This document shows positions 2,203-38,000 of a stretch of 53,538 nt of DNA, one piece after another (the stretch's first letter is position 1; the number at the start of each line of letters is the position of its first letter). The position numbers and the translations under genes were made by a program. This DNA is from Nemertoderma westbladi (lineage: Eukaryota; Animalia; Xenacoelomorpha), in assembly GCA_032718475.1 (NCBI GenBank), contig JAUCBJ010000457.1, positions 1-53,538 on the forward strand. Reading direction: 5' to 3'. The notes under the pieces are model-generated. The model was not told the origin of the DNA. It was given only the letters and a program-made list of their open reading frames with translations, and did not search any database.

Positions 2203-2735
2203 TTTTCGAGAAGTTAAGATAAATTCAGTTAATTAAGTTGATTGCGGTTAAAACAGCATTTTTCCGCCTATTCTTTCCACGGAAATTAATTAATTTCTAG
2301 TATAAAATTTAAATAATTATACTTAAAAATTATACAGCTGTAATCCCCATACCCCATTCCATTATAGTTTTTAATAAGTTCAAGTGATTTGCTTTAAATT
2401 AAAAAAATGTGTTTTAATTGATCTAAACGTAATTAATTTATTACAATGCCCCTTCTCTCCACGCTACTTCCATCTCCCCATAGAATTCTGTAGGGATCAT
2501 GCCATGGCGTACTTGCTATTGTCTGGCTATGGCTGGTAACCAATCTCAACTTAAATGTGACTGGGGGGGGGGGGGGGGTAATTAAATTTGTATTAGGACA
2601 GGCAGTGTAAGGAGCCAGACTAATAAGACAGCTTGCTTATTGTTTATCTCGCAAAATGATTGGCTGAGTATTTAATGGTGATTCTTTAGAATTACCATTC
2701 TAAAGAATCACCAGTCTTCTTAATTACCAATTCTT

Positions 2736-3477
2736 AACTCCAGCTGAACTTGGACCACCTACCATTAGCACTGACAGCATTAGATCGTAACTCCAGCTGA
2801 ACTTGGACCACCTACCATTAGCACTGACAGCATTAGATCGTAACTCCAGCTGAACTTGGACCACCTACCATTAGCACTGACAGCATTAGATCGTAACTCC
2901 AGCTGAACTTGGACCACCTACCATTAGCACTGACAGCATTAGATCGTAACTCCAGCTGAACTTGGACCACCTACCATTAGCACTGACAGCATTAGATCGT
3001 AACTCCAGCTGAACTTGGACCACCTACCATTAGCACTGACAGCATTAGATCGTAACTCCAGCTGAACTTGGACCACCTACCATTAGCACTGACAGCATTA
3101 GATCGTAACTCCAGCTGAACTTGGACCACCTACCATTAGCACTGACAGCATTAGATCGTAACTCCAGCTGAACTTGGACCACCTACCATTAGCACTGACA
3201 GCATTAGATCGTAACTCCAGCTGAACTTGGACCACCTACCATTAGCACTGACAGCATTAGATCGTAACTCCAGCTGAACTTGGACCACCTACCATTAGCA
3301 CTGACAGCATTAGATCGTAACTCCAGCTGAACTTGGACCACCTACCATTAGCACTGACAGCATTAGATCGTAACTCCAGCTGAACTTGGACCACCTACCA
3401 TTAGCACTGACAGCATTAGATCGTAACTCCAGCTGAACTTGGACCACCTACCATTAGCACTGACAGCATTAGATCGT
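2736..3477 (-). repeat. 53-bp tandem array, 14 apparently identical copies of the VPS52 exon-10 3' end plus donor site
   Basis: Minus-strand unit ACGATCTAATGCTGTCAGTGCTAATG|GTAGGTGGTCCAAGTTCAGCTGGAGTT; 742 bp = 14 x 53. Confidence 0.98.
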
Positions 3478-3655
3478 AGTTGTTGATAAGGAACACGAGT
3501 TGCTCTTTCCGGTACTGGAACTCGGCAGCCATCCGCAGTATGAATCCCTCCACCTCCAACTGTAACTCCGCCAAGGCCTTGTGGACTCTTTCGTCCGGGT
3601 AGCTTTCGTTGATACCAACAACAGCCCCCGAGAACTCTGCGTATCTACGGGTTAC
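3452..3655 (-). CDS. VPS52: VPS52 coding exon 10 (gene continues beyond window start)
   Basis: GCAG acceptor; VTRRYAEFSGAVVGINESYPDERVHKALAELQLEVEGFILRMAAEFQYRKEQLVFLINNYDLMLSVLM; ATG|GTAGGT donor; 204 nt. Confidence 0.96.
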
Positions 3656-4311: not shown

Positions 4312-4430
4312 TTGTCAAGAGCGGGAACCTGTCGTTTGTGCATCAATACGCGATACCGGTTAATAATGTGAATCGAGAGGAGTAGTGCTATAGAATCGAA
4401 GCAATCGTTAGTGTACACCTCCATGTGTTT
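4312..4430 (-). CDS. VPS52: VPS52 coding exon 8 (its first 29 nt are the last unit of the 45-bp satellite)
   Basis: TTTTTATTCCTTTTAG acceptor; KHMEVYTNDCFDSIALLLSIHIINRYRVLMHKRQVPALD matches VPS52 KHLDSYLADCYDAIAVFLCIHIV...VPALD; AA|GTAAGT donor; phases fit exons 7 and 9. Confidence 0.93.
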
Positions 4431-7400
4431 CTAAAAGGAATAAAAACAATCGTTAGTGTACACCCCCATGTGTTTCTAAAAGGAATAAAAACAATCGTTA
4501 GTGTACACCTCCATGTGTTTCTAAAAGGAATAAAAACAATCGTTAGTGTGCACCTCCATGTGTTTCTAAAAAAGAAATAAAAACAATCGTTAGTGTACAC
4601 CACCATGTGTTTCTAAAAGGAATAAAAACAATCGTTAGTGTACACCTCCATGTGTTTCTAAAAGGAATAAAAACAATCGTTAGTGTACACCTCCATGTGT
4701 TTCTAAAAGGAATAAAAACAATCGTTAGTGTGCACCTCCATGTGTTTCTAAAAGGAATAAAAACAATCGTTAGTGTACACCTCCATGTGTTTCTAAAAAA
4801 GAAATAAAAACAATCGTTAGTGTACACCACCATGTGTTTCTAAAAGGAATAAAAACAATCGTTAGTGTACACCTCCATGTGTTTCTAAAAGAAATAAAAA
4901 CAATCACACCTCCATGTGTTTCTAAAAGGAATAAAAACAATCGTTAGTGTACACCTCCATGTGTTTCTAAAAGGAATAAAAACAATCGTTAGTGTGCACC
5001 TCCATGTGTTTCTAAAAGGAATAAAAACAATCGTTAGTGTACACCTCCATGTGTTTCTAAAAAAGAAATAAAAACAATCGTTAGTGTACACCACCATGTG
5101 TTTCTAAAAGGAATAAAAACAATCGTTAGTGTACACCTCCATGTGTTTCTAAAAGAAATAAAAACAATCGTTAGTGTACACCTCCATGTGTTTCTAAAAG
5201 GAATAAAAACAACATTGCTAATGTACAGTACACCTCCATGTGTTTCTAAAAGGAATAAAAACAATCGTTAGTGTACACCCCCATGTGTTTCTAAAAGGAA
5301 TAAAAACAATCGTTAGTGTACACCTCCATGTGTTTCTAAAAGGAATAAAAACAATCGTTAGTGTGCACCTCCATGTGTTTCTAAAAGGAATAAAAACAAT
5401 CGTTAGTGTACACCTCCATGTGTTTCTAAAAGGAATAAAAACAATCGTTAGTGTGCACCTCCATGTGTTTCTAAAAGGAATAAAAACAATCGTTAGTGTA
5501 CACCTCCATGTGTTTCTAAAAAAGAAATAAAAACAATCGTTAGTGTACACCACCATGTGTTTCTAAAAGGAATAAAAACAATCGTTAGTGTACACCTCCA
5601 TGTGTTTCTAAAAGAAATAAAAACAATCACACCTCCATGTGTTTCTAAAAGGAATAAAAACAATCGTTAGTGTACACCTCCATGTGTTTCTAAAAGGAAT
5701 AAAAACAATCGTTAGTGTGCACCTCCATGTGTTTCTAAAAGGAATAAAAACAATCGTTAGTGTACACCTCCATGTGTTTCTAAAAAAGAAATAAAAACAA
5801 TCGTTAGTGTACACCACCATGTGTTTCTAAAAGGAATAAAAACAATCGTTAGTGTACACCTCCATGTGTTTCTAAAAGAAATAAAAACAATCGTTAGTGT
5901 ACACCTCCATGTGTTTCTAAAAGGAATAAAAACAATCGTTAGTGTACACCCCCATGTGTTTCTAAAAGGAATAAAAACAATCGTTAGTGTACACCTCCAT
6001 GTGTTTCTAAAAGGAATAAAAACAATCGTTAGTGTACACCCCCATGTGTTTCTAAAAGGAATAAAAACAATCGTTAGTGTACACCTCCATGTGTTTCTAA
6101 AAGGAATAAAAACAATCGTTAGTGTGCACCTCCATGTGTTTCTAAAAGGAATAAAAACAATCGTTAGTGTACACCTCCATGTGTTTCTAAAAGGAATAAA
6201 AACAATCGTTAGTGTGCACCTCCATGTGTTTCTAAAAGGAATAAAAACAATCGTTAGTGTACACCTCCATGTGTTTCTAAAAAAGAAATAAAAACAATCG
6301 TTAGTGTACACCACCATGTGTTTCTAAAAGGAATAAAAACAATCGTTAGTGTACACCTCCATGTGTTTCTAAAAGAAATAAAAACAATCACACCTCCATG
6401 TGTTTCTAAAAGGAATAAAAACAATCGTTAGTGTACACCTCCATGTGTTTCTAAAAGGAATAAAAACAATCGTTAGTGTGCACCTCCATGTGTTTCTAAA
6501 AGGAATAAAAACAATCGTTAGTGTACACCTCCATGTGTTTCTAAAAAAGAAATAAAAACAATCGTTAGTGTACACCACCATGTGTTTCTAAAAGGAATAA
6601 AAACAATCGTTAGTGTACACCTCCATGTGTTTCTAAAAGAAATAAAAACAATCGTTAGTGTACACCTCCATGTGTTTCTAAAAGGAATAAAAACAACATT
6701 GCTAATGTACAGTACACCTCCATGTGTTTCTAAAAGGAATATTAGTGTACACCCCCATGAGTGTTTCTAAAAGGAATAAAACAATCGTTAGTGTACACCT
6801 CCATGTGTTTCTAAAAGGAATAAAAACAATCGTTAGTGTGCACCTCCATGTGTTTCTAAAAGGAATAAAAACAATCGTTAGTGTACACCTCCATGTGTTT
6901 CTAAAAGGAATAAAAACAATATTGCTAATGTACAGTACACCTCCATGTGTTTCTAAAAGGAATATTAGTGTACACCCCCATGAGTGTTTCTAAAAGGAAT
7001 AAAACAATCGTTAGTGTACACCTCCATGTGTTTCTAAAAGGAATAAAAACAATCGTTAGTGTACACCACCATGTGTATCTAAAAGAAATAAAAACAATCG
7101 TTAGTGTACACCTCCATGTGTTTCTAAAAGGAATAAAAACAATATTGCTAATGTACAGTACACCTCCATGTGTTTCTAAAAGGAATATTAGTGTACACCC
7201 CCATGAGTGTTTCTAAAAGGAATAAAACAATCGTTAGTGTACACCTCCATGTGTTTCTAAAAGGAATAAAAACAATCGTTAGTGTGCACCTCCATGTGTT
7301 TCTAAAAGGAATAAAAACAATCGTTAGTGTACACCTCCATGTGTTTCTAAAAGGAATAAAAACAATATTGCTAATGTACAGTACACCTCCATGTGTTTCT

Positions 7401-10400
7401 AAAAGGAATATTAGTGTACACCCCCATGAGTGTTTCTAAAAGGAATAAAACAATCGTTAGTGTACACCTCCATGTGTTTCTAAAAGGAATAAAAACAATC
7501 GTTAGTGTGCACCTCCATGTGTTTCTAACAGGAATAAAAACAATCGTTAGTGTACACCTCCATGTGTTTCTAAAAGGAATAAAAACAATATTGCTAATGT
7601 ACAGTACACCTCCATGTGTTTCTAAAAGAAATAAAAACTTAGTGTACACCTCCATGAGTGTTTCTAAAAGGAATAAAACAATCGTTAGTGTACACCTCCA
7701 TGTGTTTCTAAAAGGAATAAAAACAATCGTTAGTGTGCACCTCCATGTGTTTCTAAAAGAAATAAAAACAATCGTTAGTGTACACCTCCATGTGTTTCTA
7801 AAAGGAATAAAAACAATCGTTAGTGTACACCACCATGTGTTTCTAAAAGGAATAAAAACAATATTGCTAATGTACAGTACACCTCCATGTGTTTCTAAAA
7901 GAAATAAAAACAATATTGCTAATGTACAGTACACCTCCATGTGTTTCTAAAAGGAATAAAAACAATATTGCTAATGTACAGTACACCTCCATGTGTTTCT
8001 AAAAGAAATAAAAACTTAGTGTACACCTCCATGAGTGTTTCTAAAAGGAATAAAACAATCGTTAGTGTACACCTCCATGTGTTTCTAAAAGGAATAAAAA
8101 CAATCGTTAGTGTGCACCTCCATGTGTTTCTAAAAGGAATAAAAACAATCGTTAGTGTACACCTCCATGTGTTTCTAAAAGGAATAAAAACAATATTGCT
8201 AATGTACAGTACACCTCCATGTGTTTCTAAAAGAAATAAAAACGTAGTGTACACCTCCATGAGTGTTTCTAAAAGGAATAAAACAATCGTTAGTGTACAC
8301 CTCCATGTGTTTCTAAAAGGAATAAAAACAATCGTTAGTGTGCACCTCCATGTGTTTCTAAAAGGAATAAAAACAATCGTTAGTGTACACCTCCATGTGT
8401 TTCTAAAAGGAATAAAAACAATATTGCTAATGTACAGTACACCTCCATGTGTTTCTAAAAGAAATAAAAACTTAGTGTACACCTCCATGAGTGTTTCTAA
8501 AAGGAATAAAACAATCGTTAGTGTACACCTCCATGTGTTTCTAAAAGGAATAAAAACAATCGTTAGTGTGCACCTCCATGTGTTTCTAAAAGGAATAAAA
8601 ACAATCGTTAGTGTACACCACCATGTGTTTCTAAAAGGAATAAAAACAATATTGCTAATGTACAGTACACTACACCTCCATGTGTTTCTAAAAGAAATAA
8701 AAACAATCGTTAGTGTACACCTCCATGAGTGTTTCTAAAAGGAATAAAACAATCGTTAGTGTACACCCCCATGTGTTTCTAAAAGGAATAAAAACAATCG
8801 TTAGTGTGCACCTCCATGTGTTTCTAAAAGGAATTAAAACAATCGTTAGTGTGCACCTCCATGTGTTTCTAAAAGGAATAAAAACAATCGTTAGTGTACA
8901 CCTCCATGTGTTTCTAAAAGGAATAAAAGCAATCGTTAGTGTGCACCTCCATGTGTTTCTAAAAGGAATAAAAACAATCGTTAGTGTACACCTCCATGTG
9001 TTTCTAAAAGGAATAAAAACAATCGTTAATGTGCACCTCCATGTGTTTCTAAAAGGAATAAAAACAATCGTTAGTGTACACCTCCATGTGTTTCTAAAAG
9101 GAATAAAAACAACCGTTAGTGTACACCTCCATGTGTTTCTAAAAGAAATAAAAACAATCGTTAGTGTACACCTCCATGTGTTTCTAAAAGGAATAAAAAC
9201 AATCGTCAGTGTACACCTCCATGTGTTTCTAAAAGGAATAAAAACAATCGTCAGTGTACACCCCCATGTGTTTCTAAAAGGAATAAAAACAATCGTTAGT
9301 GTGCACCTCCATGTGTTTCTAAAAGGAATTAAAACAATCGTTAGTGTGCACCTCCATGTGTTTCTAAAAGGAATAAAAACAATCGTTAGTGTACACCTCC
9401 ATGTGTTTCTAAAAGGAATAAAAGCAATCGTTAGTGTGCACCTCCATGTGTTTCTAAAAGGAATAAAAACAATCGTTAGTGTACACCTCCATGGGTTTCT
9501 AAAAGGAATAAAAACAATCGTTAGTGTACACCTCCATGTGTTTCTAAAAGGAATAAAAACAATCGTTAGTGTACACCTCCATGTGTTTCTAAAAGGAATA
9601 AAAACAATATTGCTAATGTACAGTACACCTCCATGTGTTTCTAAAAGGAATAAAAACAATCGTTAGTGTACACCTCCATGTGTTTCTAAAAGAAATAAAA
9701 ACTTAGTGTACACCTCCATGAGTGTTTCTAAAAGGAATAAAACAATCGTTAGTGTACACCTCCATGTGTTTCTAAAAGGAATAAAAACAATCGTTAGTGT
9801 GCACCTCCATGTGTTTCTAAAAGGAATAAAAACAATCGTCAGTGTACACCTCCATGTGTTTCTAAAAGGAATAAAAACAATCGTTAGTGTACACCTCCAT
9901 GGGTTTCTAAAAGGAATAAAAACAATCGTTAGTGTACACCTCCATGTGTTTCTAATTGGAATAAAAACAATCGTTAGTGTACACCTCCATGGGTTTCTAA
10001 AAGGAATAAAAACAATCGTTAGTGTACACCACCATGTTTTCTAAAAGGAATAAAAACAATCGTTAGTGTACACCTCCATGAGTGTTTCTAAAAGGAATAA
10101 AACAATCGTTAGTGTACACCTCCATGTGTTTCTAAAAGGAATAAAAACAATCGTTAGTGTACACCTCCATGTGTTTCTAAAAGGAATAAAAACAATCGTC
10201 AGTGTACACCTCCATGTGTTTCTAAAAGGAATAAAAACAATCGTTAGTGTACACCTCCATGAGTGTTTCTAAAAGGAATAAAACAATCGTTAGCGTACAC
10301 CTCCATGGGTTTCTAAAAGGAATAAAAACAATCGTTAGTGTACACCTCCATGTGTTTCTAAAAGGAATAAAAACAATCGTCAGTGTACACCTCCATGTGT

Positions 10401-13400
10401 TTCTAAAAAAGAAATAAAAACAATCGTTAGTGTACACAACCATGTGTTTCTAAAAAAAGAAATAAAAACAATCGTTAGTGTACACCACCATGTTTTCTAA
10501 AAGGAATAAAAACAATCGTTAGTGTACACCTCCATGAGTGTTTCTAAAAGGAATAAAAACAATCGTTAGTGTACACCTCCATGGGTTTCTAAAATGAATA
10601 AAAACAATCGTTAGTGTACACCTCCATGTGTTTCTAAAAGGAATAAAAACAATCGTTAGTGTACACCTCCATGTGTTTCTAAAAGGAATAAAAACAATCG
10701 TTAGTGTACACCTCCATGTGTTTCTAAAAGGAATAAAACAATGGCTAATGTACACCTCCATGTGTTTCTAAAAGGAATAAAAACAATGACTATAATGTAC
10801 ACATCGATGTGTTTCTAAAAGGAATAAAAACAATATTGCTAATGTACAGTACACCTCCATTTGTTTCTAAAAGAAATAAGAACAATCGTTAGTGTACACC
10901 ACCATGTGTCTCTAAAAGGAATACAAACAATCGTTAGTGTACACCTCCATGTGTTTCTAAAAGGAATAAAAACAATCGTTAGTGTGCACCTCCATGTGTT
11001 TCTAAAAGGAATAAAAACAATATTGCTAATGTACAGTACACCTCCATGTGTTTCTAAAAGAAATAAAAACAATCGTTAGTGTACACCTCCATGGTGTTTC
11101 TAAGAGGAATAAAACAATCGTTAGTGTACACCCCCATGTGTTTCTAAAAGGAATAAAAACAATGGCTAATGTACACATCGATGTGTTTCTAAAAGGAATA
11201 AAAACAATGGCTAATGTACACCACCATGTGTTTCTAAAAGGAATAAAAACAATCGTTAGTGTACACCTCCATGTGTTTCTAGAAGGAATAAAAACAATGG
11301 CTAATGTACACCACCCCACCATGTGTTTCTAAAAGGAATAAAAACAATGGCTAATGTACACCACCATGTGTCTCTAAAAGGAATAAAAACAATCGTTAGT
11401 GTACACCTCCATGTGTTTTTAAAAGGAATAAAAACAATGGCTAATGTACACCACCATGTGTCTCTAAAAGGAATAAAAACAATCGTTAGTGTACACCTCC
11501 ATGTGTTTTTAAAAGGAATAAAAACAATGGCTAATGTACACCACCATGTGTCTCTAAAAGGAATAAAAACAATCGTTAGTGTACACCTCCATGGTGTTTC
11601 TAAGAGGAATAAAACAATCGTTAGTGTACACCCCCATGTGTTTCTAAAAGGAATAAAAACAATGGCTAATGTACACATCGATGTGTTTCTAAAAGGAATA
11701 AAAACAATGGCTAATACACCTCCATGTGTTTCTAAAAGGAATAAAAACAATCGTTAGTGTACACCTCCATGTGTTTCTAGAAGGAATAAAAACAATGGCT
11801 AATGTACACCACCCCACCATGTGTTTCTAAAAGGAATAAAAACAATGGCTAATGTACACCACCATGTGTCTCTAAAAGGAATAAAAACAATCGTTAGTGT
11901 ACACCTCCATGGTGTTTCTAAGAGGAATAAAACAATCGTTAGTGTACACCCCCATGTGTTTCTAAAAGGAATAAAAACAATGGCTAATGTACACATCGAT
12001 GTGTTTCTAAAAGGAATAAAAACAATGGCTAATACACCTCCATGTGTTTCTAAAAGGAATAAAAACAATCGTTAGTGTACACCTCCATGTGTTTCTAGAA
12101 GGAATAAAAACAATGGCTAATGTACACCACCCCACCATGTGTTTCTAAAAGGAATAAAAACAATGGCTAATGTACACCACCATGTGTCTCTAAAAGGAAT
12201 AAAAACAATCGTTAGTGTACACCTCCATGTGTTTTTAAAAGGAATAAAAACAATGGCTAATGTACACCACCATGTGTCTCTAAAAGGAATAAAAACAATC
12301 GTTAGTGTACACCTCCATGTGTTTCTAAAAGGAATAAAAACAATGACTAATGTACATCTCCATGTGTTTCTAAAAGGAATAAAAACAATGGCTAATGTAC
12401 AACTCCATGTGTTTCTAAAAGGAATAAAAACAATGGCTAATATACACCTCCACCTCCATGAGTTTCTAAAAGGAATAAAAACAATGGCTAATATACACCT
12501 CAATGTGTTTCTAAAAGGAATAAAAACAATGGCTCATGTACACCTCCATGTGTTTCTAAAAGGAATAAAAACAATGGCTAATATACACCTCCACCTCCAT
12601 GTGTTTCTAAAAGGAATAAAAACAATGGCTAATGTACACCTCCATGTGTTTCTAAAAGGAATAAAAACAATGGCTAATATACACCTCCACCTCCATGTGT
12701 TTCTAAAAGGAATAAAAACAATGGCTAATGTACACCTCCATGTGTTTCTAAAAGGAATAAAGACAATGGCTAATATACACCTCCACCTCCATGTGTTTCT
12801 AAAAGGAATAAAAACAATGGCTAATGTACACCCCAATGTGTTTCTAAAAGGAATAAAAACAATGGCTCATGTACACCTCCATGTGTTTCTAAAAGGAATA
12901 AAAACAATGGCTAATATACACCTCCACCTCCATGTGTTTCTAAAAGGAATACAAACAATCGTTAGTGTACACCTCCATGTGTTTCTAAAAGGAATAAAAG
13001 CAATCGTTAGTGTGCACCTCCATGTGTTTCTAAAAGGAATAAAAACAATCGTTAGTGTACACCTCCATGTGTTTCTAAAAGGAATAAAAACAATCGTTAA
13101 TGTGCACCTCCATGTGTTTCTAAAAGGAATAAAAACAATCGTTAGTGTACACCTCCATGTGTTTCTAAAAGGAATAAAAACAACCGTTAGTGTACACCTC
13201 CATGTGTTTCTAAAAGAAATAAAAACAATCGTTAGTGTACACCTCCATGTGTTTCTAAAAGGAATAAAAACAATCGTCAGTGTACACCTCCATGTGTTTC
13301 TAAAAGGAATAAAAACAATCGTCAGTGTACACCCCCATGTGTTTCTAAAAGGAATAAAAACAATCGTTAGTGTGCACCTCCATGTGTTTCTAAAAGGAAT

Positions 13401-16400
13401 TAAAACAATCGTTAGTGTGCACCTCCATGTGTTTCTAAAAGGAATAAAAACAATCGTTAGTGTACACCTCCATGTGTTTCTAAAAGGAATAAAAGCAATC
13501 GTTAGTGTGCACCGCACCTCCATGTGTTTCTAAAAGGAATAAAAACAATCGTTAGTGTACACCTCCATGGGTTTCTAAAAGGAATAAAAACAATCGTTAG
13601 TGTACACCTCCATGTGTTTCTAAAAGGAATAAAAACAATCGTCAGTGTACACCTCCATGTGTTTCTAAAAGGAATAAAAACAATATTGCTAATGTACAGT
13701 ACACCTCCATGTGTTTCTAAAAGGAATAAAAACAATCGTTAGTGTACACCTCCATGTGTTTCTAAAAGAAATAAAAACTTAGTGTACACCTCCATGAGTG
13801 TTTCTAAAAGGAATAAAACAATCGTTAGTGTACACCTCCATGTGTTTCTAAAAGGAATAAAAACAATCGTTAGTGTGCACCTCCATGTGTTTCTAAAAGG
13901 AATAAAAACAATCGTCAGTGTACACCTCCATGTGTTTCTAAAAGGAATAAAAACAATCGTTAGTGTACACCTCCATGGGTTTCTAAAAGGAATAAAAACA
14001 ATCGTTAGTGTACACCTCCATGTGTTTCTAATTGGAATAAAAACAATCGTTAGTGTACACCTCCATGGGTTTCTAAAAGGAATAAAAACAATCGTTAGTG
14101 TACACCACCATGTTTTCTAAAAGGAATAAAAACAATCGTTAGTGTACACCTCCATGAGTGTTTCTAAAAGGAATAAAACAATCGTTAGTGTACACCTCCA
14201 TGTGTTTCTAAAAGGAATAAAAACAATCGTTAGTGTACACCTCCATGTGTTTCTAAAAGGAATAAAAACAATCGTCAGTGTACACCTCCATGTGTTTCTA
14301 AAAGGAATAAAAACAATCGTTAGTGTACACCTCCATGAGTGTTTCTAAAAGGAATAAAACAATCGTTAGCGTACACCTCCATGGGTTTCTAAAAGGAATA
14401 AAAACAATCGTTAGTGTACACCTCCATGTGTTTCTAAAAGGAATAAAAACAATCGTCAGTGTACACCTCCATGTGTTTCTAAAAAAGAAATAAAAACAAT
14501 CGTTAGTGTACACAACCATGTGTTTCTAAAAAAAGAAATAAAAACAATCGTTAGTGTACACCACCATGTTTTCTAAAAGGAATAAAAACAATCGTTAGTG
14601 TACACCTCCATGAGTGTTTCTAAAAGGAATAAAAACAATCGTTAGTGTACACCTCCATGGGTTTCTAAAATGAATAAAAACAATCGTTAGTGTACACCTC
14701 CATGTGTTTCTAAAAGGAATAAAAACAATCGTTAGTGTACACCTCCATGTGTTTCTAAAAGGAATAAAAACAATCGTTAGTGTACACCTCCATGTGTTTC
14801 TAAAAGGAATAAAACAATGGCTAATGTACACCTCCATGTGTTTCTAAAAGGAATAAAAACAATGACTATAATGTACACATCGATGTGTTTCTAAAAGGAA
14901 TAAAAACAATATTGCTAATGTACAGTACACCTCCATTTGTTTCTAAAAGAAATAAGAACAATCGTTAGTGTACACCACCATGTGTCTCTAAAAGGAATAC
15001 AAACAATCGTTAGTGTACACCTCCATGTGTTTCTAAAAGGAATAAAAACAATCGTTAGTGTGCACCTCCATGTGTTTCTAAAAGGAATAAAAACAATATT
15101 GCTAATGTACAGTACACCTCCATGTGTTTCTAAAAGAAATAAAAACAATCGTTAGTGTACACCTCCATGGTGTTTCTAAGAGGAATAAAACAATCGTTAG
15201 TGTACACCCCCATGTGTTTCTAAAAGGAATAAAAACAATGGCTAATGTACACATCGATGTGTTTCTAAAAGGAATAAAAACAATGGCTAATGTACACCAC
15301 CATGTGTTTCTAAAAGGAATAAAAACAATCGTTAGTGTACACCTCCATGTGTTTCTAGAAGGAATAAAAACAATGGCTAATGTACACCACCCCACCATGT
15401 GTTTCTAAAAGGAATAAAAACAATGGCTAATGTACACCACCATGTGTCTCTAAAAGGAATAAAAACAATCGTTAGTGTACACCTCCATGTGTTTTTAAAA
15501 GGAATAAAAACAATGGCTAATGTACACCACCATGTGTCTCTAAAAGGAATAAAAACAATCGTTAGTGTACACCTCCATGTGTTTTTAAAAGGAATAAAAA
15601 CAATGGCTAATGTACACCACCATGTGTCTCTAAAAGGAATAAAAACAATCGTTAGTGTACACCTCCATGGTGTTTCTAAGAGGAATAAAACAATCGTTAG
15701 TGTACACCCCCATGTGTTTCTAAAAGGAATAAAAACAATGGCTAATGTACACATCGATGTGTTTCTAAAAGGAATAAAAACAATGGCTAATACACCTCCA
15801 TGTGTTTCTAAAAGGAATAAAAACAATCGTTAGTGTACACCTCCATGTGTTTCTAGAAGGAATAAAAACAATGGCTAATGTACACCACCCCACCATGTGT
15901 TTCTAAAAGGAATAAAAACAATGGCTAATGTACACCACCATGTGTCTCTAAAAGGAATAAAAACAATCGTTAGTGTACACCTCCATGGTGTTTCTAAGAG
16001 GAATAAAACAATCGTTAGTGTACACCCCCATGTGTTTCTAAAAGGAATAAAAACAATGGCTAATGTACACATCGATGTGTTTCTAAAAGGAATAAAAACA
16101 ATGGCTAATACACCTCCATGTGTTTCTAAAAGGAATAAAAACAATCGTTAGTGTACACCTCCATGTGTTTCTAGAAGGAATAAAAACAATGGCTAATGTA
16201 CACCACCCCACCATGTGTTTCTAAAAGGAATAAAAACAATGGCTAATGTACACCACCATGTGTCTCTAAAAGGAATAAAAACAATCGTTAGTGTACACCT
16301 CCATGTGTTTTTAAAAGGAATAAAAACAATGGCTAATGTACACCACCATGTGTCTCTAAAAGGAATAAAAACAATCGTTAGTGTACACCTCCATGTGTTT

Positions 16401-19400
16401 CTAAAAGGAATAAAAACAATCGTTAGTGTACACCTCCATGTGTTTCTAGAAGGAATAAAAACAATGGCTAATGTACACCACCCCACCATGTGTTTCTAAA
16501 AGGAATAAAAACAATGGCTAATGTACACCACCATGTGTCTCTAAAAGGAATAAAAACAATCGTTAGTGTACACCTCCATGTGTTTTTAAAAGGAATAAAA
16601 ACAATGGCTAATGTACACCTCCATGTGTTTCTAAAAGGAATAAAAACAATGACTAATGTACATCTCCATGTGTTTCTAAAAGGAATAAAAACAATGGCTA
16701 ATGTACAACTCCATGTGTTTCTAAAAGGAATAAAAACAATGGCTAATATACACCTCCACCTCCATGAGTTTCTAAAAGGAATAAAAACAATGGCTAATAT
16801 ACACCTCAATGTGTTTCTAAAAGGAATAAAAACAATGGCTCATGTACACCTCCATGTGTTTCTAAAAGGAATAAAAACAATGGCTAATATACACCTCCAC
16901 CTCCATGTGTTTCTAAAAGGAATAAAAACAATGGCTAATGTACACCTCCATGTGTTTCTAAAAGGAATAAAAACAATGGCTAATATACACCTCCACCTCC
17001 ATGTGTTTCTAAAAGGAATAAAAACAATGGCTAATGTACACCTCCATGTGTTTCTAAAAGGAATAAAGACAATGGCTAATATACACCTCCACCTCCATGT
17101 GTTTCTAAAAGGAATAAAAACAATGGCTAATGTACACCCCAATGTGTTTCTAAAAGGAATAAAAACAATGGCTCATGTACACCTCCATGTGTTTCTAAAA
17201 GGAATAAAAACAATGGCTAATATACACCTCCACCTCCATGTGTTTCTAAAAGGAATACAAACAATCGTTAGTGTACACCTCCATGTGTTTCTAAAACGAA
17301 TAAAAACAATCGTTAGTGTACACCTCCATGGTGTTTCTAAGAGGAATAAAACAATCGTTAGTGTACACCCCCATGTGTTTCTAAAAGGAATAAAAACAAT
17401 GGCTAATGTACACATCGATGTGTTTCTAAAAGGAATAAAAACAATGGCTAATACACCTCCATGTGTTTCTAAAAGGAATAAAAACAATCGTTAGTGTACA
17501 CCTCCATGTGTTTCTAGAAGGAATAAAAACAATGGCTAATGTACACCACCCCACCATGTGTTTCTAAAAGGAATAAAAACAATGGCTAATGTACACCACC
17601 ATGTGTCTCTAAAAGGAATAAAAACAATCGTTAGTGTACACCTCCATGTGTTTTTAAAAGGAATAAAAACAATGGCTAATGTACACCACCATGTGTCTCT
17701 AAAAGGAATAAAAACAATCGTTAGTGTACACCTCCATGGTGTTTCTAAGAGGAATAAAACAATCGTTAGTGTACACCCCCATGTGTTTCTAAAAGGAATA
17801 AAAACAATGGCTAATGTACACATCGATGTGTTTCTAAAAGGAATAAAAACAATGGCTAATACACCTCCATGTGTTTCTAAAAGGAATAAAAACAATCGTT
17901 AGTGTACACCTCCATGTGTTTCTAGAAGGAATAAAAACAATGGCTAATGTACACCACCCCACCATGTGTTTCTAAAAGGAATAAAAACAATGGCTAATGT
18001 ACACCACCATGTGTCTCTAAAAGGAATAAAAACAATCGTTAGTGTACACCTCCATGTGTTTTTAAAAGGAATAAAAACAATGGCTAATGTACACCACCAT
18101 GTGTCTCTAAAAGGAATAAAAACAATCGTTAGTGTACACCTCCATGTGTTTCTAAAAGGAATAAAAACAATGACTAATGTACATCTCCATGTGTTTCTAA
18201 AAGGAATAAAAACAATGGCTAATGTACATCTCCATGTGTTTCTAAAAGGAATAAAAACAATGGCTAATGTACACCACCATGTGTCTCTAAAAGGAATAAA
18301 AACAATCGTTAGTGTACACCTCCATGTGTTTTTAAAAGGAATAAAAACAATGGCTAATGTACACCACCATGTGTCTCTAAAAGGAATAAAAACAATCGTT
18401 AGTGTACACCTCCATGGTGTTTCTAAGAGGAATAAAACAATCGTTAGTGTACTGTACACCCCCATGTGTTTCTAAAAGGAATAAAAACAATGGCTAATGT
18501 ACACATCGATGTGTTTCTAAAAGGAATAAAAACAATGGCTAATACACCTCCATGTGTTTCTAAAAGGAATAAAAACAATCGTTAGTGTACACCTCCATGT
18601 GTTTCTAGAAGGAATAAAAACAATGGCTAATGTACACCACCCCACCATGTGTTTCTAAAAGGAATAAAAACAATGGCTAATGTACACCACCATGTGTCTC
18701 TAAAAGGAATAAAAACAATCGTTAGTGTACACCTCCATGTGTTTTTAAAAGGAATAAAAACAATGGCTAATGTACACCACCATGTGTCTCTAAAAGGAAT
18801 AAAAACAATCGTTAGTGTACACCTCCATGTGTTTCTAAAAGAAATAAAAACAATCGTTAGTGTACACCTCCATGTGTTTCTAAAAGGAATAAAAACAATG
18901 ACTAATGTACATCTCCATGTGTTTCTAAAAGGAATAAAAACAATGGCTAATATACACCTCCACCTCCATGAGTTTCTAAAAGGAATAAAAACAATGGCTA
19001 ATATACACCTCAATGTGTTTCTAAAAGGAATAAAAACAATGGCTCATGTACACCTCCATGTGTTTCTAAAAGGAATAAAAACAATGGCTAATATACACCT
19101 CCACCTCCATGAGTTTCTAAAAGGAATAAAAACAATGGCTAATATACACCTCAATGTGTTTCTAAAAGGAATAAAAACAATGGCTCATGTACACCTCCAT
19201 GTGTTTCTAAAAGGAATAAAAACAATGGCTAATATACACCTCCACCTCCATGTGTTTCTAAAAGGAATAAAAACAATGGCTAATGTACACCTCCATGTGT
19301 TTCTAAAAGGAATAAAAACAATGGCTAATATACACCTCCACCTCCATGTGTTTCTAAAAGGAATAAAAACAATGGCTCATGTACACCTCCATGTGTTTCT

Positions 19401-20284
19401 AAAAGGAATAAAAACAATGGCTAATATACACCTCCACCTCCATGTGTTTCTAAAAGGAATACAAACAATCGTTAGTGTACACCTCCATGTGTTTCTAAAA
19501 CGAATAAAAACAATGGCTAATGTACACCTCCATGTGTTTCTAAAAGGAATAAAAACAATGGCTAATGTACACCTCCATGTGTCTCTAAAAGGAATAAAAA
19601 CAATCGTAAGTGTACACCACCATGTGTTTCTAAAAGGAATAAAAACAATGGCTAATATACACCTCCACCTCCATGTGTTTCTAAAAGGAATAAAAACAAT
19701 GGCTAATGTACACCTCAATGTGTTTCTAAAAGGAATAAAAACAATGGCTCATGTACACCTCCATGTGTTTCTAAAAGGAATAAAAACAATGGCTAATATA
19801 CACCTCCACCTCCATGTGTTTCTAAAAGGAATACAAACAATCGTTAGTGTACACCTCCATGTGTTTCTAAAACGAATAAAAACAATGGCTAATGTACACC
19901 TCCATGTGTTTCTAAAAGGAATAAAAACAATGGCTAATGTACACCTCCATGTGTCTCTAAAAGGAATAAAAACAATCGTAAGTGTACACCACCATGTGTT
20001 TCTAAAAGGAATAAAAACAATGGCTCATGTACACCTCCATGTGTTTCTAAAAGGAATAAAAACAATGGCTAATATACACCTCCACCTCCATGTGTTTCTA
20101 AAAGGAATAAAAACAATGGCTAATATACACCTCTATGTGTTTCTTAACGGAATAAATACAACCGTTAGTGTACACCACCATGTGTTTCTAAAAGGAATAA
20201 AAACAATGGCTAATATACACCTCTATGTGTTTCTTAACGGAATAAATACAACCGTTAGTGTACGCCACCATGTGTTTCTAAAAA
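4402..20284 (-). repeat. 45-bp satellite, ~350 copies of the VPS52 intron-7 acceptor plus exon-8 start, with higher-order repeats
   Basis: Minus-strand unit TTTTTATTCCTTTTAG|AAACACATGGAGGTGTACACTAACGATTG; ~15.9 kb; the last copy runs into unique exon-8 sequence. Confidence 0.98.
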
Positions 20285-20573
20285 TCTAACACCACAATCC
20301 GTCCTTTCTGTTTGACCCCGGAACTAAAAGTAAGAAAATTAGTAAATTATGAATCAATAAGATAACGTTATATTATTAGAATAAAACGAATCAAAGTCCA
20401 AAGTCTATTATGAATTGGCATTGTTTTATAATTTAAGGTTGATCTATAAAATTAAATTATTAATTAAAATGATTTCAAAATAATTATCAGTTGGCCAAAA
20501 CTTAAAAACAAAACGTTAAAGATTTAATAAATTTGTTCGCATAAGGAAATTTATCCAAGAGAGAGAGAATAAT

Positions 20574-21041
20574 ATGGAGGGGAATTTCGATGAGTCAACA
20601 GAAAGTAAAAGTTGCGTCAAAAACAAAAGACAACCAAGTGAATCCTATAGACTGTCTGGTAGAGCAAAGTTATCTATCTTCGGGGGTTTTATAATCCACA
20701 CAACCTTGGGAGTCATCTACACATTCGGTAACATCAGCCCCTATATGGTTTCCTACATGAGAGCACGAACTTATTCGAAGTTACTTAACGATGAAACCAT
20801 GGTTTGGTCTTCCGGTTTAACCTCAATAGCGTACAGCATCGGGTGTCCGCTAGGGGGCGTTATGGCGTCCCGTTGGGGGAGCCGTGCGCCCGTGGCTCTT
20901 GGCTCCGTTATTATGAGTCTATCTCTGTCCGCCACGTATCTCACCATCCAACACGGAGTCGCCCCGACGCTGTTAACTTACGGTTTCCTCGCGGGTATCG
21001 GTTCCGGGATCATGTACGTGCCGCCATTCGTGATGGCCCAG
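20574..21041 (+). CDS. Nested MFS transporter (oxalate:formate antiporter / monocarboxylate-like), exon 1
   Basis: GGFIIHTTLGVIYTFGNISPYMVSYM, GGVMASRWGSR and YGFLAGIGSGIMY are typical of N-half MFS helices; 156 codons ending CAG|GT. Confidence 0.88.
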
Positions 21042-21044
21042 GTC

Positions 21045-21371
21045 ACCTGTCCCCAATCCTTACACTACTAGAAATAAAGTTAAGTAAATGGTTATTCGGA
21101 TTGGTTAATGAGCTCTACGTTGATTGGATGCTGAAATCGTATAAATAATATTGGGACGGTAGAACTAACAGTAGGGCGTGCTTTCACACCGTTGGCATAA
21201 AAAATACTCCAAAAGCTGTAAAGTCAAAGCCGCGGTGCATTTGAAATACCGACAGTGCAGGTTTTTTTAGACTTTGTAAGGAAAGTAAGTGAGGTACAGC
21301 CCAACAACCAATTCCAGACTCAGATTCAATAGCTGTGTTTCTAGTATATAGAGTAAGGATTGGGAATATGC
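21045..21371. mobile_element. Introner-like TIR element forming MFS intron 1 (intron 21042-21377)
   Basis: 9-bp direct repeat GCCCAGGTC at 21036-21044 and 21372-21380; ~37-41-bp imperfect inverted repeats immediately inside (CCCAATCCTTACACTACTAGAAA / TTTCTAGTATATAGAGTAAGGATTGGG). Confidence 0.85.
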
Positions 21372-21377
21372 GCCCAG

Positions 21378-21608
21378 GTCTGGATGAGTCGACGCAAGGG
21401 ATTGGCCAGCGGGTTGGTGCTGAGCGGGTTCGGAGTCGGTGGGTTCGTATTCGACCAGATCCAGACGTACTTCGTGAACCCGGGGAATCTGTCGCCCGAT
21501 CTCCGGGATCCGGTGGATCCCGGTTCGGTTTACTTCGGACAGCCAGAGATCCTCGACCGAGTTCCCTACTGCTTTCTACTCTTAGGCGGATGTTACGCAG
21601 TGTTACAG
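21378..21608 (+). CDS. Nested MFS transporter, exon 2
   Basis: VWMSRRKGLASGLVLSGFGVGGFVFDQIQTYFVNP...DRVPYCFLLLGGCYAVLQ; the RKGLASG...GFG motif fits the family; 77 codons. The 3' boundary depends on a non-canonical donor. Confidence 0.85.
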
Positions 21609-21958
21609 GGCCGTTACTGAATGTTAACGATGTTACCGAACACAAAGCGAATGTTGCCAAGTCAAAAAATAATAGGTTGCTTTGCTACTAAAAACAAACA
21701 TTTTAAGAAAAAATTTACAAACATCTAATGTAAACAAACAGGAGTTTGAGTTAACAAAACAATTATCTGTTTGGCTATGAAACAAACCATCACTAGCATT
21801 CCCATCGTCTCACTATGTTGTTTTTTGTTATGAAAATTACACATTACTTTGAAATAAATATGTAACCTTTTATCCTTTTGAATCATCACAACTGGCACTC
21901 AATTAATTCGCGTCGGTTAGGTGTCCCTCGTTATCAATCAGTAAACGCGAATAATCAG
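21609..21958 (+). other. MFS intron 2 with terminal inverted repeats and probable non-canonical GG donor
   Basis: Joining LQ|IIGICL requires CAG|GGCCGT...AATCAG|ATA; arms ~21611-21652 and ~21906-21950 are imperfectly reverse-complementary (CGTTACTGAATGTTAACGA / TCGTTATCAATCAGTAAACG). Confidence 0.65.
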
Positions 21959-22675
21959 ATAATCGGTATCTGTTTAATAAAAGATCGATACCCGATATCG
22001 AAAAGTGATGAGACAACGAGATTAATCGAAAACCACGACGATATTAAACCGAAAGCCATGTTAAAAACATCCTTCTTCTACCAAACCTACTATATCAGCA
22101 TGATGTTCCATCTAGTCAGCGGCTTCCTTAACTCGTTGTACAAAACTTACGGAGAGACTTTCGTCCGGGACGACCACTTCTTGGCGATCATGGGATCCGC
22201 TAGTTGTGCGGCAAACTGTCTCGGGCGGATTACTTTCGGACACATCGGCGACAAGTTTGGTATGAAATCGACCCTGGTGTCCCTCCTAGCGGCCTACTCC
22301 GTCTTCTCTACCACGATGTATTTGACCCCGTATGGCGGCCGGTGGATGCTCCTCGTATGGGTTTGGGTCACCTCGCTGACTATGACCGGAATGACCGCCA
22401 TACTGCCGCCCATGATAACGGCCCAATACGGGTCCGCCCACGCTAATATCAACTACAGTCTGGTTTGTAACGCGGTTCTGCTCTCTGGGATTCTGTCTCC
22501 CTTGTTGTCCACCACAATCCAGCTACATCTGGGGTGGCCGCCCTCGTTTATCACGTGCGGAGCCTTACTCGCAATATGCATGCCCGTTGCCATGGCAATG
22601 AGATACAGAGGCGACGTCATACCATCACCATTGGTTATAAATACTATTCCAGAAACCGATATAGAGCCCATATAG
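21959..22675 (+). CDS. Nested MFS transporter, exon 3 (spliced protein ~471 aa)
   Basis: KPKAMLKTSFFY, YKTYGETFVRDDHFLAIMGS, GRITFGHIGDKFG (MFS motif A-like), YGSAHANINYS; TAG stop at 22675. Confidence 0.9.
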   Translation: MIGICLIKDRYPISKSDETTRLIENHDDIKPKAMLKTSFFYQTYYISMMFHLVSGFLNSLYKTYGETFVRDDHFLAIMGSASCAANCLGRITFGHIGDKFGMKSTLVSLLAAYSVFSTTMYLTPYGGRWMLLVWVWVTSLTMTGMTAILPPMITAQYGSAHANINYSLVCNAVLLSGILSPLLSTTIQLHLGWPPSFITCGALLAICMPVAMAMRYRGDVIPSPLVINTIPETDIEPI

Positions 22676-22701
22676 ACAGCGGGATGACGCATTGTGCAAT
22701 C

Positions 22702-22707
22702 AATAAA
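22702..22707 (+). terminator. Putative polyadenylation signal of the nested MFS gene
   Basis: AATAAA 27 nt after the stop codon. Confidence 0.5.
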
Positions 22708-22741
22708 CGTATTAATGGACCCTATTAATGGTACAACAGGT

Positions 22742-23047
22742 ACTTAAATTATAACTTTTGTTGGGCACAGCTTTCAATGTTGGCAATGACGTCCAGGTGG
22801 GATCGAACTTGTGACATCCGAGTTGGAAGTCTGACGCTCTAACCATTCAGCTAGCGGCTCAGGTAAAATATAGACCTGGACATACTATCTGATACCTTGT
22901 ATGTCCGCAATTTACCTCCTTATGGCCTCCCATCTGCCAACACCATCATCTCCTGCAACTGTGCTCAACCCTACAGTACTTGGCCGTCTTGGTGGGATCA
23001 CAATGCCGACTTTGCCAAGCTGTGCCAAACAAAGTTATAATAAAAGT
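22742..23047. mobile_element. ~306-bp fold-back/MITE-like element
   Basis: ~50-bp imperfect inverted ends (ACTTAAATTATAACTTTTGTTGGGCACAGCTT... / ...AAGCTGTGCCAAACAAAGTTATAATAAAAGT); no clean TSD. Confidence 0.6.
22791..22860 (-). pseudogene. tRNA-derived sequence (tRNA-Gly(TCC)-like SINE head or pseudo-tRNA)
   Basis: GAGCCGCTAGCTGAATGGTTAGAGCGTCAGACTTCCAACTCGGATGTCACAAGTTCGATCC: A box, CT-TCC-AA loop and B box present; the acceptor stem does not pair. Confidence 0.65.
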
Positions 23048-23213
23048 TAAACAATCTATTGGATTAGTTTTTTGTGGGGGCGGTGGGATATTGATCTATG
23101 GATTGTCTAGATAAATCCTAACGAAGTAACAACCGAACTATAGGCACAGCTAAATGGTAGATTGTCATTAAAACCCAAAAAAATATTTAATCCACTCAAC
23201 ATAATATACTTAC

Positions 23214-23369
23214 AATGAGCATGGTTAGGGTCTTCCCCATAACAGCGTTGAATAGATCCTGGGCTCCCTTCCCGTGAACGAGGAAGAAGTCCGAGAGAAA
23301 GAGATACTCGCGGCAAGAGTTGTCGAGGAGAGCGTAATGTTGGCTGCGGAATAGTTGTTCCAACGTGTA
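23214..23369 (-). CDS. VPS52: VPS52 coding exon 7
   Basis: CCTTTTAG acceptor; YTLEQLFRSQHYALLDNSCREYLFLSDFFLVHGKGAQDLFNAVMGKTLTMLI (conserved FRSQHYALLDNSCREYLF motif); GTAAGT donor; 156 nt. Confidence 0.96.
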
Positions 23370-23585
23370 CTAAAAGGATGAGAAATTCTATTGTCTTTAT
23401 TTACGATGGTACGACATAACGATGGTCAGAAACCGACTAAACTCAAGTACCTTACTTAATTTCAGATTACACTAACGGTCATTATTGAAAAACACAATTT
23501 GATAGTTGTAAGCTAATGATTTAAGCAATAAATTATTGATTGATACGGATGCAGTCGTAGAATGTAATTACAAAGAAACATATGA

Positions 23586-35096: not shown

Positions 35097-38000
35097 GATG
35101 ATAGAGGATGTTTTTTAACCGCCGCAAGGCGGAAAAGGGCTTTAGCCCTCACTAACCACTACCACCGCCTCACCCAATTCAATAAACGGGGAACTATATA
35201 CGGAAAAGGGTATACTTGGGCGAGTTAGGGTATAAGGGAGCGCTTAGGGGGGAAGCCGACTATCCCAGTAGGTGGATAGACCCCCTATTAACTTTCTAAA
35301 TTTTGATTTCGAGCGAATCCGACCGACGGTTTTCGAGTTGGGCCCAATGGAACGTTTTAGAAATTTGAATTTCCCGCCAAAAGCTACAGCCGAGCTACAG
35401 CCAAACTGGCTATAGATGGAGACTAGCGGCCAACGGGATCGCGTAGGGGGTATAGATGTTAGTCCAGCTCATTCTTTTTTTGGAACGACTCGACCTATAG
35501 GGGCCGATCGGTAGCTGATCGAACACGATCTTTACGATCTTTGGCGAAATACGACCGGAAGGAGTGGGAATTTGAGAAAAGTTTGAAAGTAGAAAATGTT
35601 CCTCATCCCCGAATTATGCTAGACGGACCCGATAAAAATATGAAAAAAATTAATTCTAGGGGGTCTACGGGGCCAACGAAGCTTTCCGATTGGACGATAT
35701 TATTTTCGCCTATTACTACGGGAAGGAACGGTTTTAAGTTAAAACATGTACAAGAGATATGGTCGGGAAGCTCGAGCTCTATCCAACGGAAGCGGTCCCG
35801 GGATCGTAAATTAACAAGTTCTCGAGATATAGAGGAAAATTAACGAGTCGTTAAAAAATGCAGCAATTAGCAATTAGCGCTAATTAAGAGCGAATTAATT
35901 AATCGAATCTCGAAATTAACGGTGCCAATCGATGGGAAACAACGAGAGGAGCTCGCCAATTTTTTAAATTTTCAAAAAGACCCAGCGGAAGCCGAGATAA
36001 ATGGATTTTCGTGAAATCGGGGTCCCAACCGCCAAGTCGAATATCAGCATCGAATCGCCACCTTTGGGAAGTAGGCGAAAATATACCGAAAAAGCAAAAC
36101 GAGCGATATTGATTTAAAATTCGAAACTTTTTGGTCGACACGGGCTCGCTAGTGGATGATATACACTATTTTAGTCAATTTGTCCAAAAGGGTCATTTTT
36201 ATTATCTTTGATCATGATCTTTATGATCTTTGGCCTAAAGCATGGAATATGAGTATTTTCATATTTTATATTAATTCATACATTGTACGCAAAGTCTATG
36301 GGGACATTTCCAGACATACTTTCATATTTATCTTTGAAATTTAAATCATTTGTTCACCCAGCCATGCAATGGCTGGGTGAACCACCAAAATATTAAGAGA
36401 TGAAATCCGCAAAGCCTTTAAATACATTATAGGGTGGTGGGTGGGGCTAGTGGTTAGTGTTTATACATAGTTAGGTAATGATTGTATATATAGCGAGTTG
36501 TTAAAAAAGGGAATGGATATAACTTTATGTTACAAAAGACTATGAATTTAGATCTATCGAGTTACGAATATACTCTATCGCCACCTTTTAGCGTAGCGTA
36601 GGGGAGGAATACAATTAGTTGGAATCTATGTGTGGGGAATATAGCGGAACAACTATGTACGAGATACTTCTTCGACTTCTACAGTAGAACAATTAGTATA
36701 GTTCTTTAAACTAATTTTAGAACTCCGTTTACCTACTAAAAAACAAATAAATATAATTAAATTTATAATAATAATAATAATAATAACAAGGTCTACTAAA
36801 ATATACAAGCTATACTGATCAAGAATAAATGATAAAAAAACTCACATCACTGGATGATAGAGGATGTTTTTTAATCGCCGTAAGGCGGAAAAGGGCTTTA
36901 GCCCTCACTAACCGCTACCACCTCCTCACCCAATGCTAAAATCCGGGAATATTGTACCGAAGGGGGTATACTTGGGCGAGTTAGGGTATAAGGGGGCGCT
37001 TAGGGGGGAAGCCGACCATCCCAGTAGGTGGATAGACCCCCTATTAACTTTCTAAATTTTGATTTCGAGCGAATCCGACCGACGGTTTTCGAGTTGGGCC
37101 CAATGGAACGTTTTAGAAATTTGAATTTCCCGCCAAACGCTACAGCCAAACTGGCAATAGATGGAGACTAGCGGCCAACGGGATCGCGTAGGGGGTATAG
37201 ATGTTAGTCCAGCTCATTCTTTTTTTGGAACGACTCGACCTATAGGGGCCGATCGGTAGCTGATCGAACACGATCTTTACGATCTTTGGCGAAATACGAC
37301 CGGAAGGAGTGGGAATTTGGGAAAAGTTTGAAAGTAGAAAATGTTCCTCACCCCCGAATTATGCTAGACGGACCCGATAAAAATTTGAAAAAAATTAATT
37401 CTAGGGGGTCTACGGGGCCAACGAAGCTTTCCGATTGGACGATATTATTTTCGCCTATTACTACGGGAAGGAACGGTTTTAAGTTAAAACATGTACAAGA
37501 GATATGGTCGGGAAGCTCGAGCTCTATCCAACGGAAGCGGTCCCGGGATCGTAAATTAACAAGTTCTAGAGATATAGAGGAAAATTAACGAGTCGTTAAA
37601 AAATGCAGTAATTAGCAATTAGCGCTAATTAAGAGCGAATTAATTAATCGAATCTCGAAATTAACGGTGCCAATCGATGGGAAACAACGAGAGGAGCTCG
37701 CCAATTTTTTACATTTTCGAAAAGACCCAGCGGAAGCCGAGATAAATGGATTTTCGTAAAATCGGGGTCCCGACCACCAAGTCGAATATCGGAGGCGAAT
37801 CACCACCTTTGGGAAATAGGCGAAAATATACCGAAAAAGCAAAACGAGCGATATTGATTTAAAATTCGAAACTTTTTGGTCGATATGGGTTCGCTAGTAG
37901 ACGATATACACTATTTTAGTCAATTTATCCAAAAGGGTCATTTTTATGATATTTGATCATGATCTTTATGATCTTTGGCCTAAAGCATGGAATAAGAGTA

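Follow-up and report, generated by a model that had tools for sequence, protein, structure and literature searches.

The DNA analysed, referred to here as the window, was the whole 53,538-nucleotide stretch of contig JAUCBJ010000457.1 of Nemertoderma westbladi, and its sequence consisted mostly of tandem arrays. On the minus strand, nine introns of Vps52 were mapped, leaving a joined and stop-free frame of 583 residues. An MFS transporter gene was found antisense to Vps52, nested in one of its introns with a satellite array on each side (20574-22675). The features on which the analysis draws were as follows.

4431 to 23213, minus strand: Vps52 intron 7, which encloses the entire MFS gene; its 3′ end lies within a tandem array of acceptor copies, and the end used is uncertain.
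20574 (ATG) to 22675 (stop), plus strand: MFS transporter gene, three exons, 471 codons, frame open after both predicted splices.
20574 to 21041, plus strand: MFS exon 1, 156 codons, assigned by Pfam MFS_1 (E 2.2e-7, below the curated cut-off), homologue names and alignment.
21042 to 21377, plus strand: intron 1, GT-AG, 336 nt; 99 of 106 homologues colinear at its join.
21378 to 21608, plus strand: MFS exon 2, 77 codons, ending in GGCYAVLQ; the final 9 nt, 21600-21608, are taken to be the left copy of the target site.
21609 to 21958, plus strand: intron 2, predicted GG-AG, 350 nt, phase 0, 33% GC, without a pyrimidine tract, best of 35 joins.
21609 to 21652, plus strand: left inverted-repeat arm of intron 2, its first two bases being the predicted GG donor.
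21906 to 21949, minus strand: right inverted-repeat arm of intron 2, including the competing AG sites 21920 and 21941, which are predicted to be paired.
21950 to 21958, plus strand: inferred right target-site copy of intron 2, decayed save for the acceptor CAG (3/9 match), placed by the register test described below.
21959 to 22675, plus strand: MFS exon 3, 238 codons plus stop (Pfam MFS_1, E 1.1e-12).
51632 to 52572, no strand assigned: comparison element outside the gene, 941 nt, with inverted ends of ~190 nt (84% alike), termini GGG...CCC and a perfect 9-nt duplication.

The named homologues of the MFS gene were oxalate:formate antiporter-like or apicoplast pyruvate carrier-like. The closest were 31-37% identical, with no close orthologue found, and the Atlas matches for the protein were bacterial MFS clusters only, and generic. 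Used as a homologue query, exon 1 matched none of 814 candidates, and exon 2 gave a single weak match of 18 residues, which was set aside, among 597 pattern hits in the metagenomes (36 of 64 parts scanned). Rfam returned no match over 20300-23500 at E values up to 1, and ARAGORN predicted no tRNA across the window. All nine mapped Vps52 introns were GT-AG, and a tenth donor was also GT. In the Vps52 tree the host sequence grouped with amphioxus and echinoderms (SH-aLRT 97), a larger tree was unresolved, and a grouping with arthropods was not rejected by the AU test (p-AU 0.14); these were quick trees that held no named copepod, tunicate, cnidarian or xenacoelomorph sequences. Neither a ctenophore nor a copepod affinity of the host was favoured by these trees or by the named Vps52 matches. 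On this evidence the host is characterised only as a deuterostome-like invertebrate. The MFS gene may have begun intron-poor, as a copy nested in Vps52, both of its present introns being of the fold-back type.

Exon 2 closes with CAG (21606-21608), and the insert that follows begins GGCCGT at 21609 and finishes AATCAG at 21958. An earlier note, made from the sequence alone, had proposed a 350-nt GG-AG intron at this position, joining GGCYAVLQ to IIGICLI. Its coordinates were correct; the splice junction itself is a prediction. In-frame joins were enumerated between donors starting with G at 21570-21639 and acceptors ending with AG at 21900-22029, yielding 35 products. Each was scored with a profile from which the query was left out; it was built from the 106 of 154 homologues that were 380-700 residues long. 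The 21609/21958 GG-AG join was top of the 35 at 470.6 bits, with the runner-up at 461.5. Two alternatives listed in the earlier note exist as it described them: the GC donor at 21610 with the AG at 21941 adds VNANNQ (459.0 bits), and the GT donor at 21600 with the AG at 21958 drops VLQ (455.7 bits). An option missing from that note, GT 21592 with AG 21941 (460.1 bits), is canonical, also removes 350 nt, and replaces CYAVL with LNANN.

When the query was aligned together with the 106 homologues, 99 of them showed zero length difference across 20 residues round the GG-AG join. The family consensus at the join was G-G-x-Y-A-V-L-Q-L-I-G, and the V, L and Q that precede it were each the commonest family residue (Q in 76/106). 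The hydropathy of the helix was 2.36 for the GG-AG join versus 1.5-2.1 for the four alternatives scored. Based on the profile score, the colinearity and the family consensus, the ancestral protein appears to have read YAVLQ-IIG, which is restored only by removing 350 nt at these borders or at borders slid along the shared CAG. The slid borders (GG..CA, AG..TC and CA..AT) would give an identical mRNA; they were not preferred, as every other intron observed ends in AG. Counting in the structure-assisted route weighed below, splicing most likely follows the GG-AG join, with the odds clearly in its favour.

The GG donor matched the U1-complementary donor consensus at 6 of 11 positions, the best of 10 nearby candidates (2-5 for the others). 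The intron 1 donor also matched at 6 of 11 and the Vps52 donors at 6-8. The exonic CAG and the +5G/+6T that the earlier note had pointed out are among the positions kept. At acceptor positions -20 to -5, pyrimidines made up 31% in intron 2 and 38% in intron 1, compared with 62-88% in the nine Vps52 introns (n=9), in keeping with the lack of a polypyrimidine tract noted previously. Pooling of the donors gave GG or GA in 0/10 for Vps52 and in 1/12 with the MFS gene included, a small sample.

The earlier note had allowed that base 21610 might be a sequencing error. No letter other than G was present at this position in the contigs (not raw reads) of the three runs covering it, X1, X2 and X3; a fourth run, X4, reaches exon 3 only. 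That this G stands for a misassembled T is very improbable. The agreement is one of contigs, and two of the three covering runs, X1 and X2, are possibly the source of the window DNA; however, X2 and X3 both read G, X3 representing another haplotype of the sample that X1 comes from, with three other differences over the stretch. Furthermore, opposite the +2 G the right arm has C21948, and the two are predicted to pair in three of five folds (probability 0.42-0.73). Because this complementary C is present, the +2 G looks like the original terminal base rather than a lone T>G change.

The imperfect inverted repeats of ~42 nt claimed for the ends of intron 2 were recovered as arms of 44 nt, matching in 32 of 45 aligned columns. 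Their alignment score was reached by 1/1000 dinucleotide shuffles of the terminal 50 nt, and their duplex energy (-28.9 versus -19.7 +/- 3.8 kcal/mol) by 17/1000, so that the complementarity was better than in shuffled sequence, the comparison suggested in the earlier note. The fold of the whole intron gave a z of -2.43, with 1/100 shuffles as good. For the arms of intron 1, 0/1000 shuffles were equal on either alignment score or duplex energy, and 0/9 Vps52 introns departed from their shuffles for end arms. All of these shuffle tests are uncorrected, and the region was picked after the repeat had been seen. The arms of the two introns were unrelated to each other by blastn, as had been claimed.

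At the competing AG sites, positions 21920, 21940 and 21941 were predicted to be paired with a probability of at least 0.98 in all five flank sizes. The GG was predicted to be mostly paired once flanks were included, and neither it nor the final AG was reliably free. A stem leaving the GG and the final AG unpaired was considered and dropped; with flanks, both often pair with exon sequence. The 11 substitutions between the arms comprised nine transversions, one G-U and one A-C, with no enrichment of wobble pairs. Since only one of the 11 mismatches is G-U, the pattern is unlike that left by selection for RNA pairing, of which it shows no sign.

Intron 1 is bordered by a perfect 9-nt duplication (21036-21044 and 21372-21380), and both its GT and its AG fall within the copies. 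The inferred element between them (21045-21371) has inverted ends of about 46-50 nt that lie in register with the inner edges of the duplication; it begins with AC on the left and ends with GC on the right. At 21039-21044 the protein has Q-V where the family mostly has M-K, and the codons give CAG|GT. This Q-V is as expected of an insertion that was tolerated for a site offering both splice signals. A 41-nt piece within intron 1 (21098-21138) recurs in the genome at ~85-90% identity with a constant downstream neighbour.

For intron 2, the earlier note had found no intact target-site duplication, and the borders indeed share only CAG. The register of such a duplication is nevertheless restricted, as the 350-nt offset together with the pairing permits only odd lengths. 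Nine nucleotides is the shortest odd length that places CAG in both copies, and the element then starts exactly with GG. The resulting 9-nt slot is in the same register as that of intron 1, but keeps 3/9 positions where intron 1 keeps 9/9. The left copy codes for VLQ, which is family-like, and the termini of the element are GG on the left and CG on the right. The left 9-mers of both introns are quasi-palindromic (3/4 pairs, against a background of 5-7%), a feature noticed post hoc.

The comparison element at 51632-52572 lies thirty kilobases from intron 2. By its geometry it is likely to be a young Mutator-like miniature transposon, younger than the introns, and its presence in the window indicates that elements of such geometry occur in the genome. 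In the unmasked window, the 8-mer immediately left of intron 2 was found only there and at or beside the duplication of this element, with a one-base offset. A target preference shared by the two elements is a possible cause of the coincidence.

Because of the 9-nt geometry, and of the young element with GGG...CCC ends and a 9-nt duplication, both MFS introns were read as likely old Mutator-like miniature transposons that have become introns. For intron 2 specifically, the reading we favour, at a probability of roughly 0.57, is that of a decayed Mutator-like MITE turned intron and spliced GG...AG. A 341-nt element (21609-21949) would have inserted with a 9-nt duplication ending in CAG. Splicing out everything between the element's first base and the last base of the right copy, both included, would then remove the element and exactly one copy, restoring the frame. 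The ordinary spliceosome would take its donor from the first two bases of the element, GG, and its acceptor from the CAG that ends the right copy, with U1 holding the site through the exonic CAG, +1G, +5G and +6T; the intron 1 donor would likewise lean on its exonic CAG. The stem would have arisen incidentally, from the ends of the transposon. We propose that it might still assist splicing, both by masking the rival AG sites at 21920 and 21941 and by drawing the two ends of the intron closer. Intron 1 would be an event of the same kind, probably younger, with GT and AG both derived from the duplication.

The weakest link in the transposon-relic reading is the right copy, which has decayed beyond the arms: it differs at 6/6 positions outside CAG, compared with 13/45 columns for the arms. 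Alternatively, this mismatch may stem from filler DNA or from a tandem duplication of ATAATC at the site. Two further points count against the same reading, namely the right end of intron 2, which is CG and not CC, and the left end of intron 1, which is AC. In the contigs of the four runs, no further copies of either intron's arms or of intron 2 were found at 80% identity or above, a cut-off that would miss older, more diverged copies. Contig joints skipping the insert, as expected of an empty site, were absent among the contigs examined.

The same transposon origin could be combined with splicing at nearby GT or GC donors (21600/21958, 21610 or 21613/21941, 21592/21941), the scar in the helix being tolerated. 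Every one of these joins is in frame, GC and GT outrank GG in human reporter assays (the part of PMC6280755 consulted, which places GG near the bottom among non-canonical donors in human cells), and introners that add residues are known (10.1101/2022.06.06.494994, in the text available). The Vps52 donors are GT in 10/10 and so lend no backing to a tolerance of GG in this animal. We nevertheless regard splicing at these sites as unlikely. The alternative joins score 10-15 bits lower at a position where 99/106 homologues permit no indel, their donors match the consensus at 2-4 of 11 positions versus 6 for GG, and the AG at 21941 is predicted to be paired. Moreover, VLQ is still the family consensus although its intronic copy has decayed. 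A different possibility is that the stem itself is under selection and defines the splice sites in place of a pyrimidine tract and a +2 U, possibly in many introns. Stems accompany low pyrimidine contents (38% and 31%) in 2/2 MFS introns and occur in 0/9 of Vps52. The stem hides the competing AG sites in 5/5 folds, the arms are better preserved than the duplication, and all nine listed variants of intron 2 fall between the arms, a weak indication as they form only ~4 independent clusters. Transposon ends, however, are a sufficient account of the stems and of the lack of tracts alike, needing no extra assumption, and the mismatches described above are not enriched in wobble pairs. Selection on the stem is accordingly rated as improbable. 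The earlier note had hinted at such a structure-assisted class coexisting with ordinary introns; fold-back and GT-AG introns do coexist here, whereas for the class itself the duplication geometry points to transposon relics instead. It is similarly doubtful, though conceivable, that several Mutator-like MITE families gave introns genome-wide in an animal whose introns are otherwise canonical, with GG termini accepted as donors without a pyrimidine tract and the paired ends assisting. That would amount to structure-assisted intron birth beside ordinary U2 splicing, in which paired ends hide AG sites and unite donor and acceptor.

The insert might also be poorly spliced, and the gene a recent pseudogene or under relaxed selection. 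The exon 3 haplotype variants comprised five non-synonymous and one synonymous change, a ratio expected under neutrality (P 0.58) and unlikely at an omega of 0.15 (P 0.017). A proline present in 95/106 homologues is serine in the MFS protein, and the gene lies antisense within a Vps52 intron, beside a satellite array. On the other hand, the frame is uninterrupted across all 471 codons, the protein retains 59 of the 67 covered conserved columns, which equals the homologue median, and no variants are listed in exons 1 and 2. When neutral decay was simulated at 15% per site, half of the divergence between the arms, an open frame survived in 0/1000 runs. At 5% it stayed open in 64/1000; low divergence can thus spare a frame, and very recent decay would be compatible with the data. 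Taken with the retained columns, loss of function seems a distinctly improbable explanation.

The transposon-relic reading was compared with known systems. Introners derived from TIR DNA transposons have inverted ends and a target duplication, and their splice sites are carried or co-opted (10.1101/2022.06.06.494994; PMC12130899; PMC11282704, each as far as its available text goes). Similarly, intron 1 co-opts both splice sites, and intron 2 would carry its donor and co-opt its acceptor. TIR introners form multi-copy families, whereas the MFS introns are single at an identity of at least 80% and are mutually unrelated. A Mutator introner with 8-9-bp duplications and GG/CC termini is recorded in the accessible portion of PMC12130899 (supplement file 8, row 590), and the only Mutator-class row found in the family table of that survey is from a dinoflagellate. 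Mu itself makes 9-bp duplications (PMC2774946, seen in part). The combination of an 8-9-nt duplication with GG/CC is complete in the element at 51632-52572. Intron 2 has GG on the left, CG on the right and a decayed 9-nt slot, and intron 1 has a perfect 9 nt with ends AC/GC. The usual introner donors in the 2025 survey are GT, GC, GA and AT, with GG not among them in the part that was available (PMC12130899).

The precedent for GA and GG donors that the earlier note had cited in a copepod and in larvaceans is sound for Eurytemora affinis, in which GG donors are established, and fits the present case loosely. In the portion of Robertson 2017 (PMC5714493) that was accessible, GG donors are reported for 5/297 and 10/623 introns, with an obligate exonic AG; GA and GG donors together account for 10-12% of introns and nearly always have A at +3. 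Intron 2 resembles these in having a non-GY donor behind an exon-final AG, a canonical AG acceptor and an apparently recently gained position. It differs in having C at +3, and in a host whose Vps52 donors are 10/10 GT. Transposon ends are not described for the Eurytemora introns in the text available (PMC5714493), whereas intron 2 has inverted ends. The host was not grouped with arthropods, to which Eurytemora belongs, in the best Vps52 tree, though the AU test did not reject such a grouping (the p-AU of 0.14 given above). In Oikopleura dioica, GA-AG introns are frequent (PMC7072748, partial text). The available passages of a Xenoturbella genome paper make no mention of non-canonical donors. 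Fritillaria borealis has MITE-derived introns in which the terminal repeat forms a splice site (PMC11282704; 10.1101/2025.08.15.670264, both in the sections available), and intron 2 would likewise combine a splice site from a transposon terminal repeat with inverted ends and a duplication. According to those sections, the Fritillaria introns have mostly AG-AC or AG-AT ends and predominate genome-wide, whereas intron 2 has a canonical acceptor, in a host with mainly GT-AG introns among those observed. The nonconventional introns of euglenids are similar in their paired ends, lack of a pyrimidine tract, border repeats and probable MITE origin (PMC11282704). The euglenid introns have no GT-AG ends and come out as circles through a pathway yet to be established (PMC11282704), whereas the present introns retain G...AG and belong to an animal. 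In the literature covered, which was partial and left some supplements outside, no GG donor contributed by a Mutator-like terminus was found described for an animal whose introns are canonical.

Few animal groups have yielded records of transposon-derived intron gain, the 2022 survey counting two of them (10.1101/2022.06.06.494994), and the animals validated for introners in 2025 include a sea urchin and Styela (PMC12130899), both according to the parts of these sources that were available. Such surveys depend on families with many copies and would overlook decayed singletons such as the two introns described here. The present case is a single predicted junction in one gene. If it is confirmed, GG donors and transposon-born introns, so far described apart, become linked through one simple principle, whereby insertion directly behind CAG of an element that has GG ends and duplicates 9 nt yields a seamless GG-AG intron. 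Confirmation would also mean that the gene models of this genome are likely broken at such sites.

Several other repeats were observed in the window. The intronic minisatellites of Vps52 (4402-20283, 48317-48989 and 2735-3478) are amplified splice junctions. The 45-nt unit, in about 348 copies, holds an acceptor plus the first codons of the following exon, and the 33-nt (20 copies) and 53-nt (14 copies) units each hold an exon end plus donor. In Vps52 intron 2, an element of 973 nt at 49306-50278 has GGGGCC...GGCCCC ends and a TTA duplication; by these hallmarks we take it to be PIF/Harbinger-like. A fold-back element of 306 nt with 47-nt arms (81%) lies just beyond the MFS poly(A) signal, at 22742-23047. 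Its left two thirds are very high in copy number, with a summed depth thousands of times that of single-copy sequence, and include a putative tRNA-like A/B-box stretch on the minus strand, for which both ARAGORN and Rfam were negative. Finally, Vps52 intron 4 contains six tandem copies of a 1754-nt unit at 35097-45467, each with an open stretch of 126 codons.
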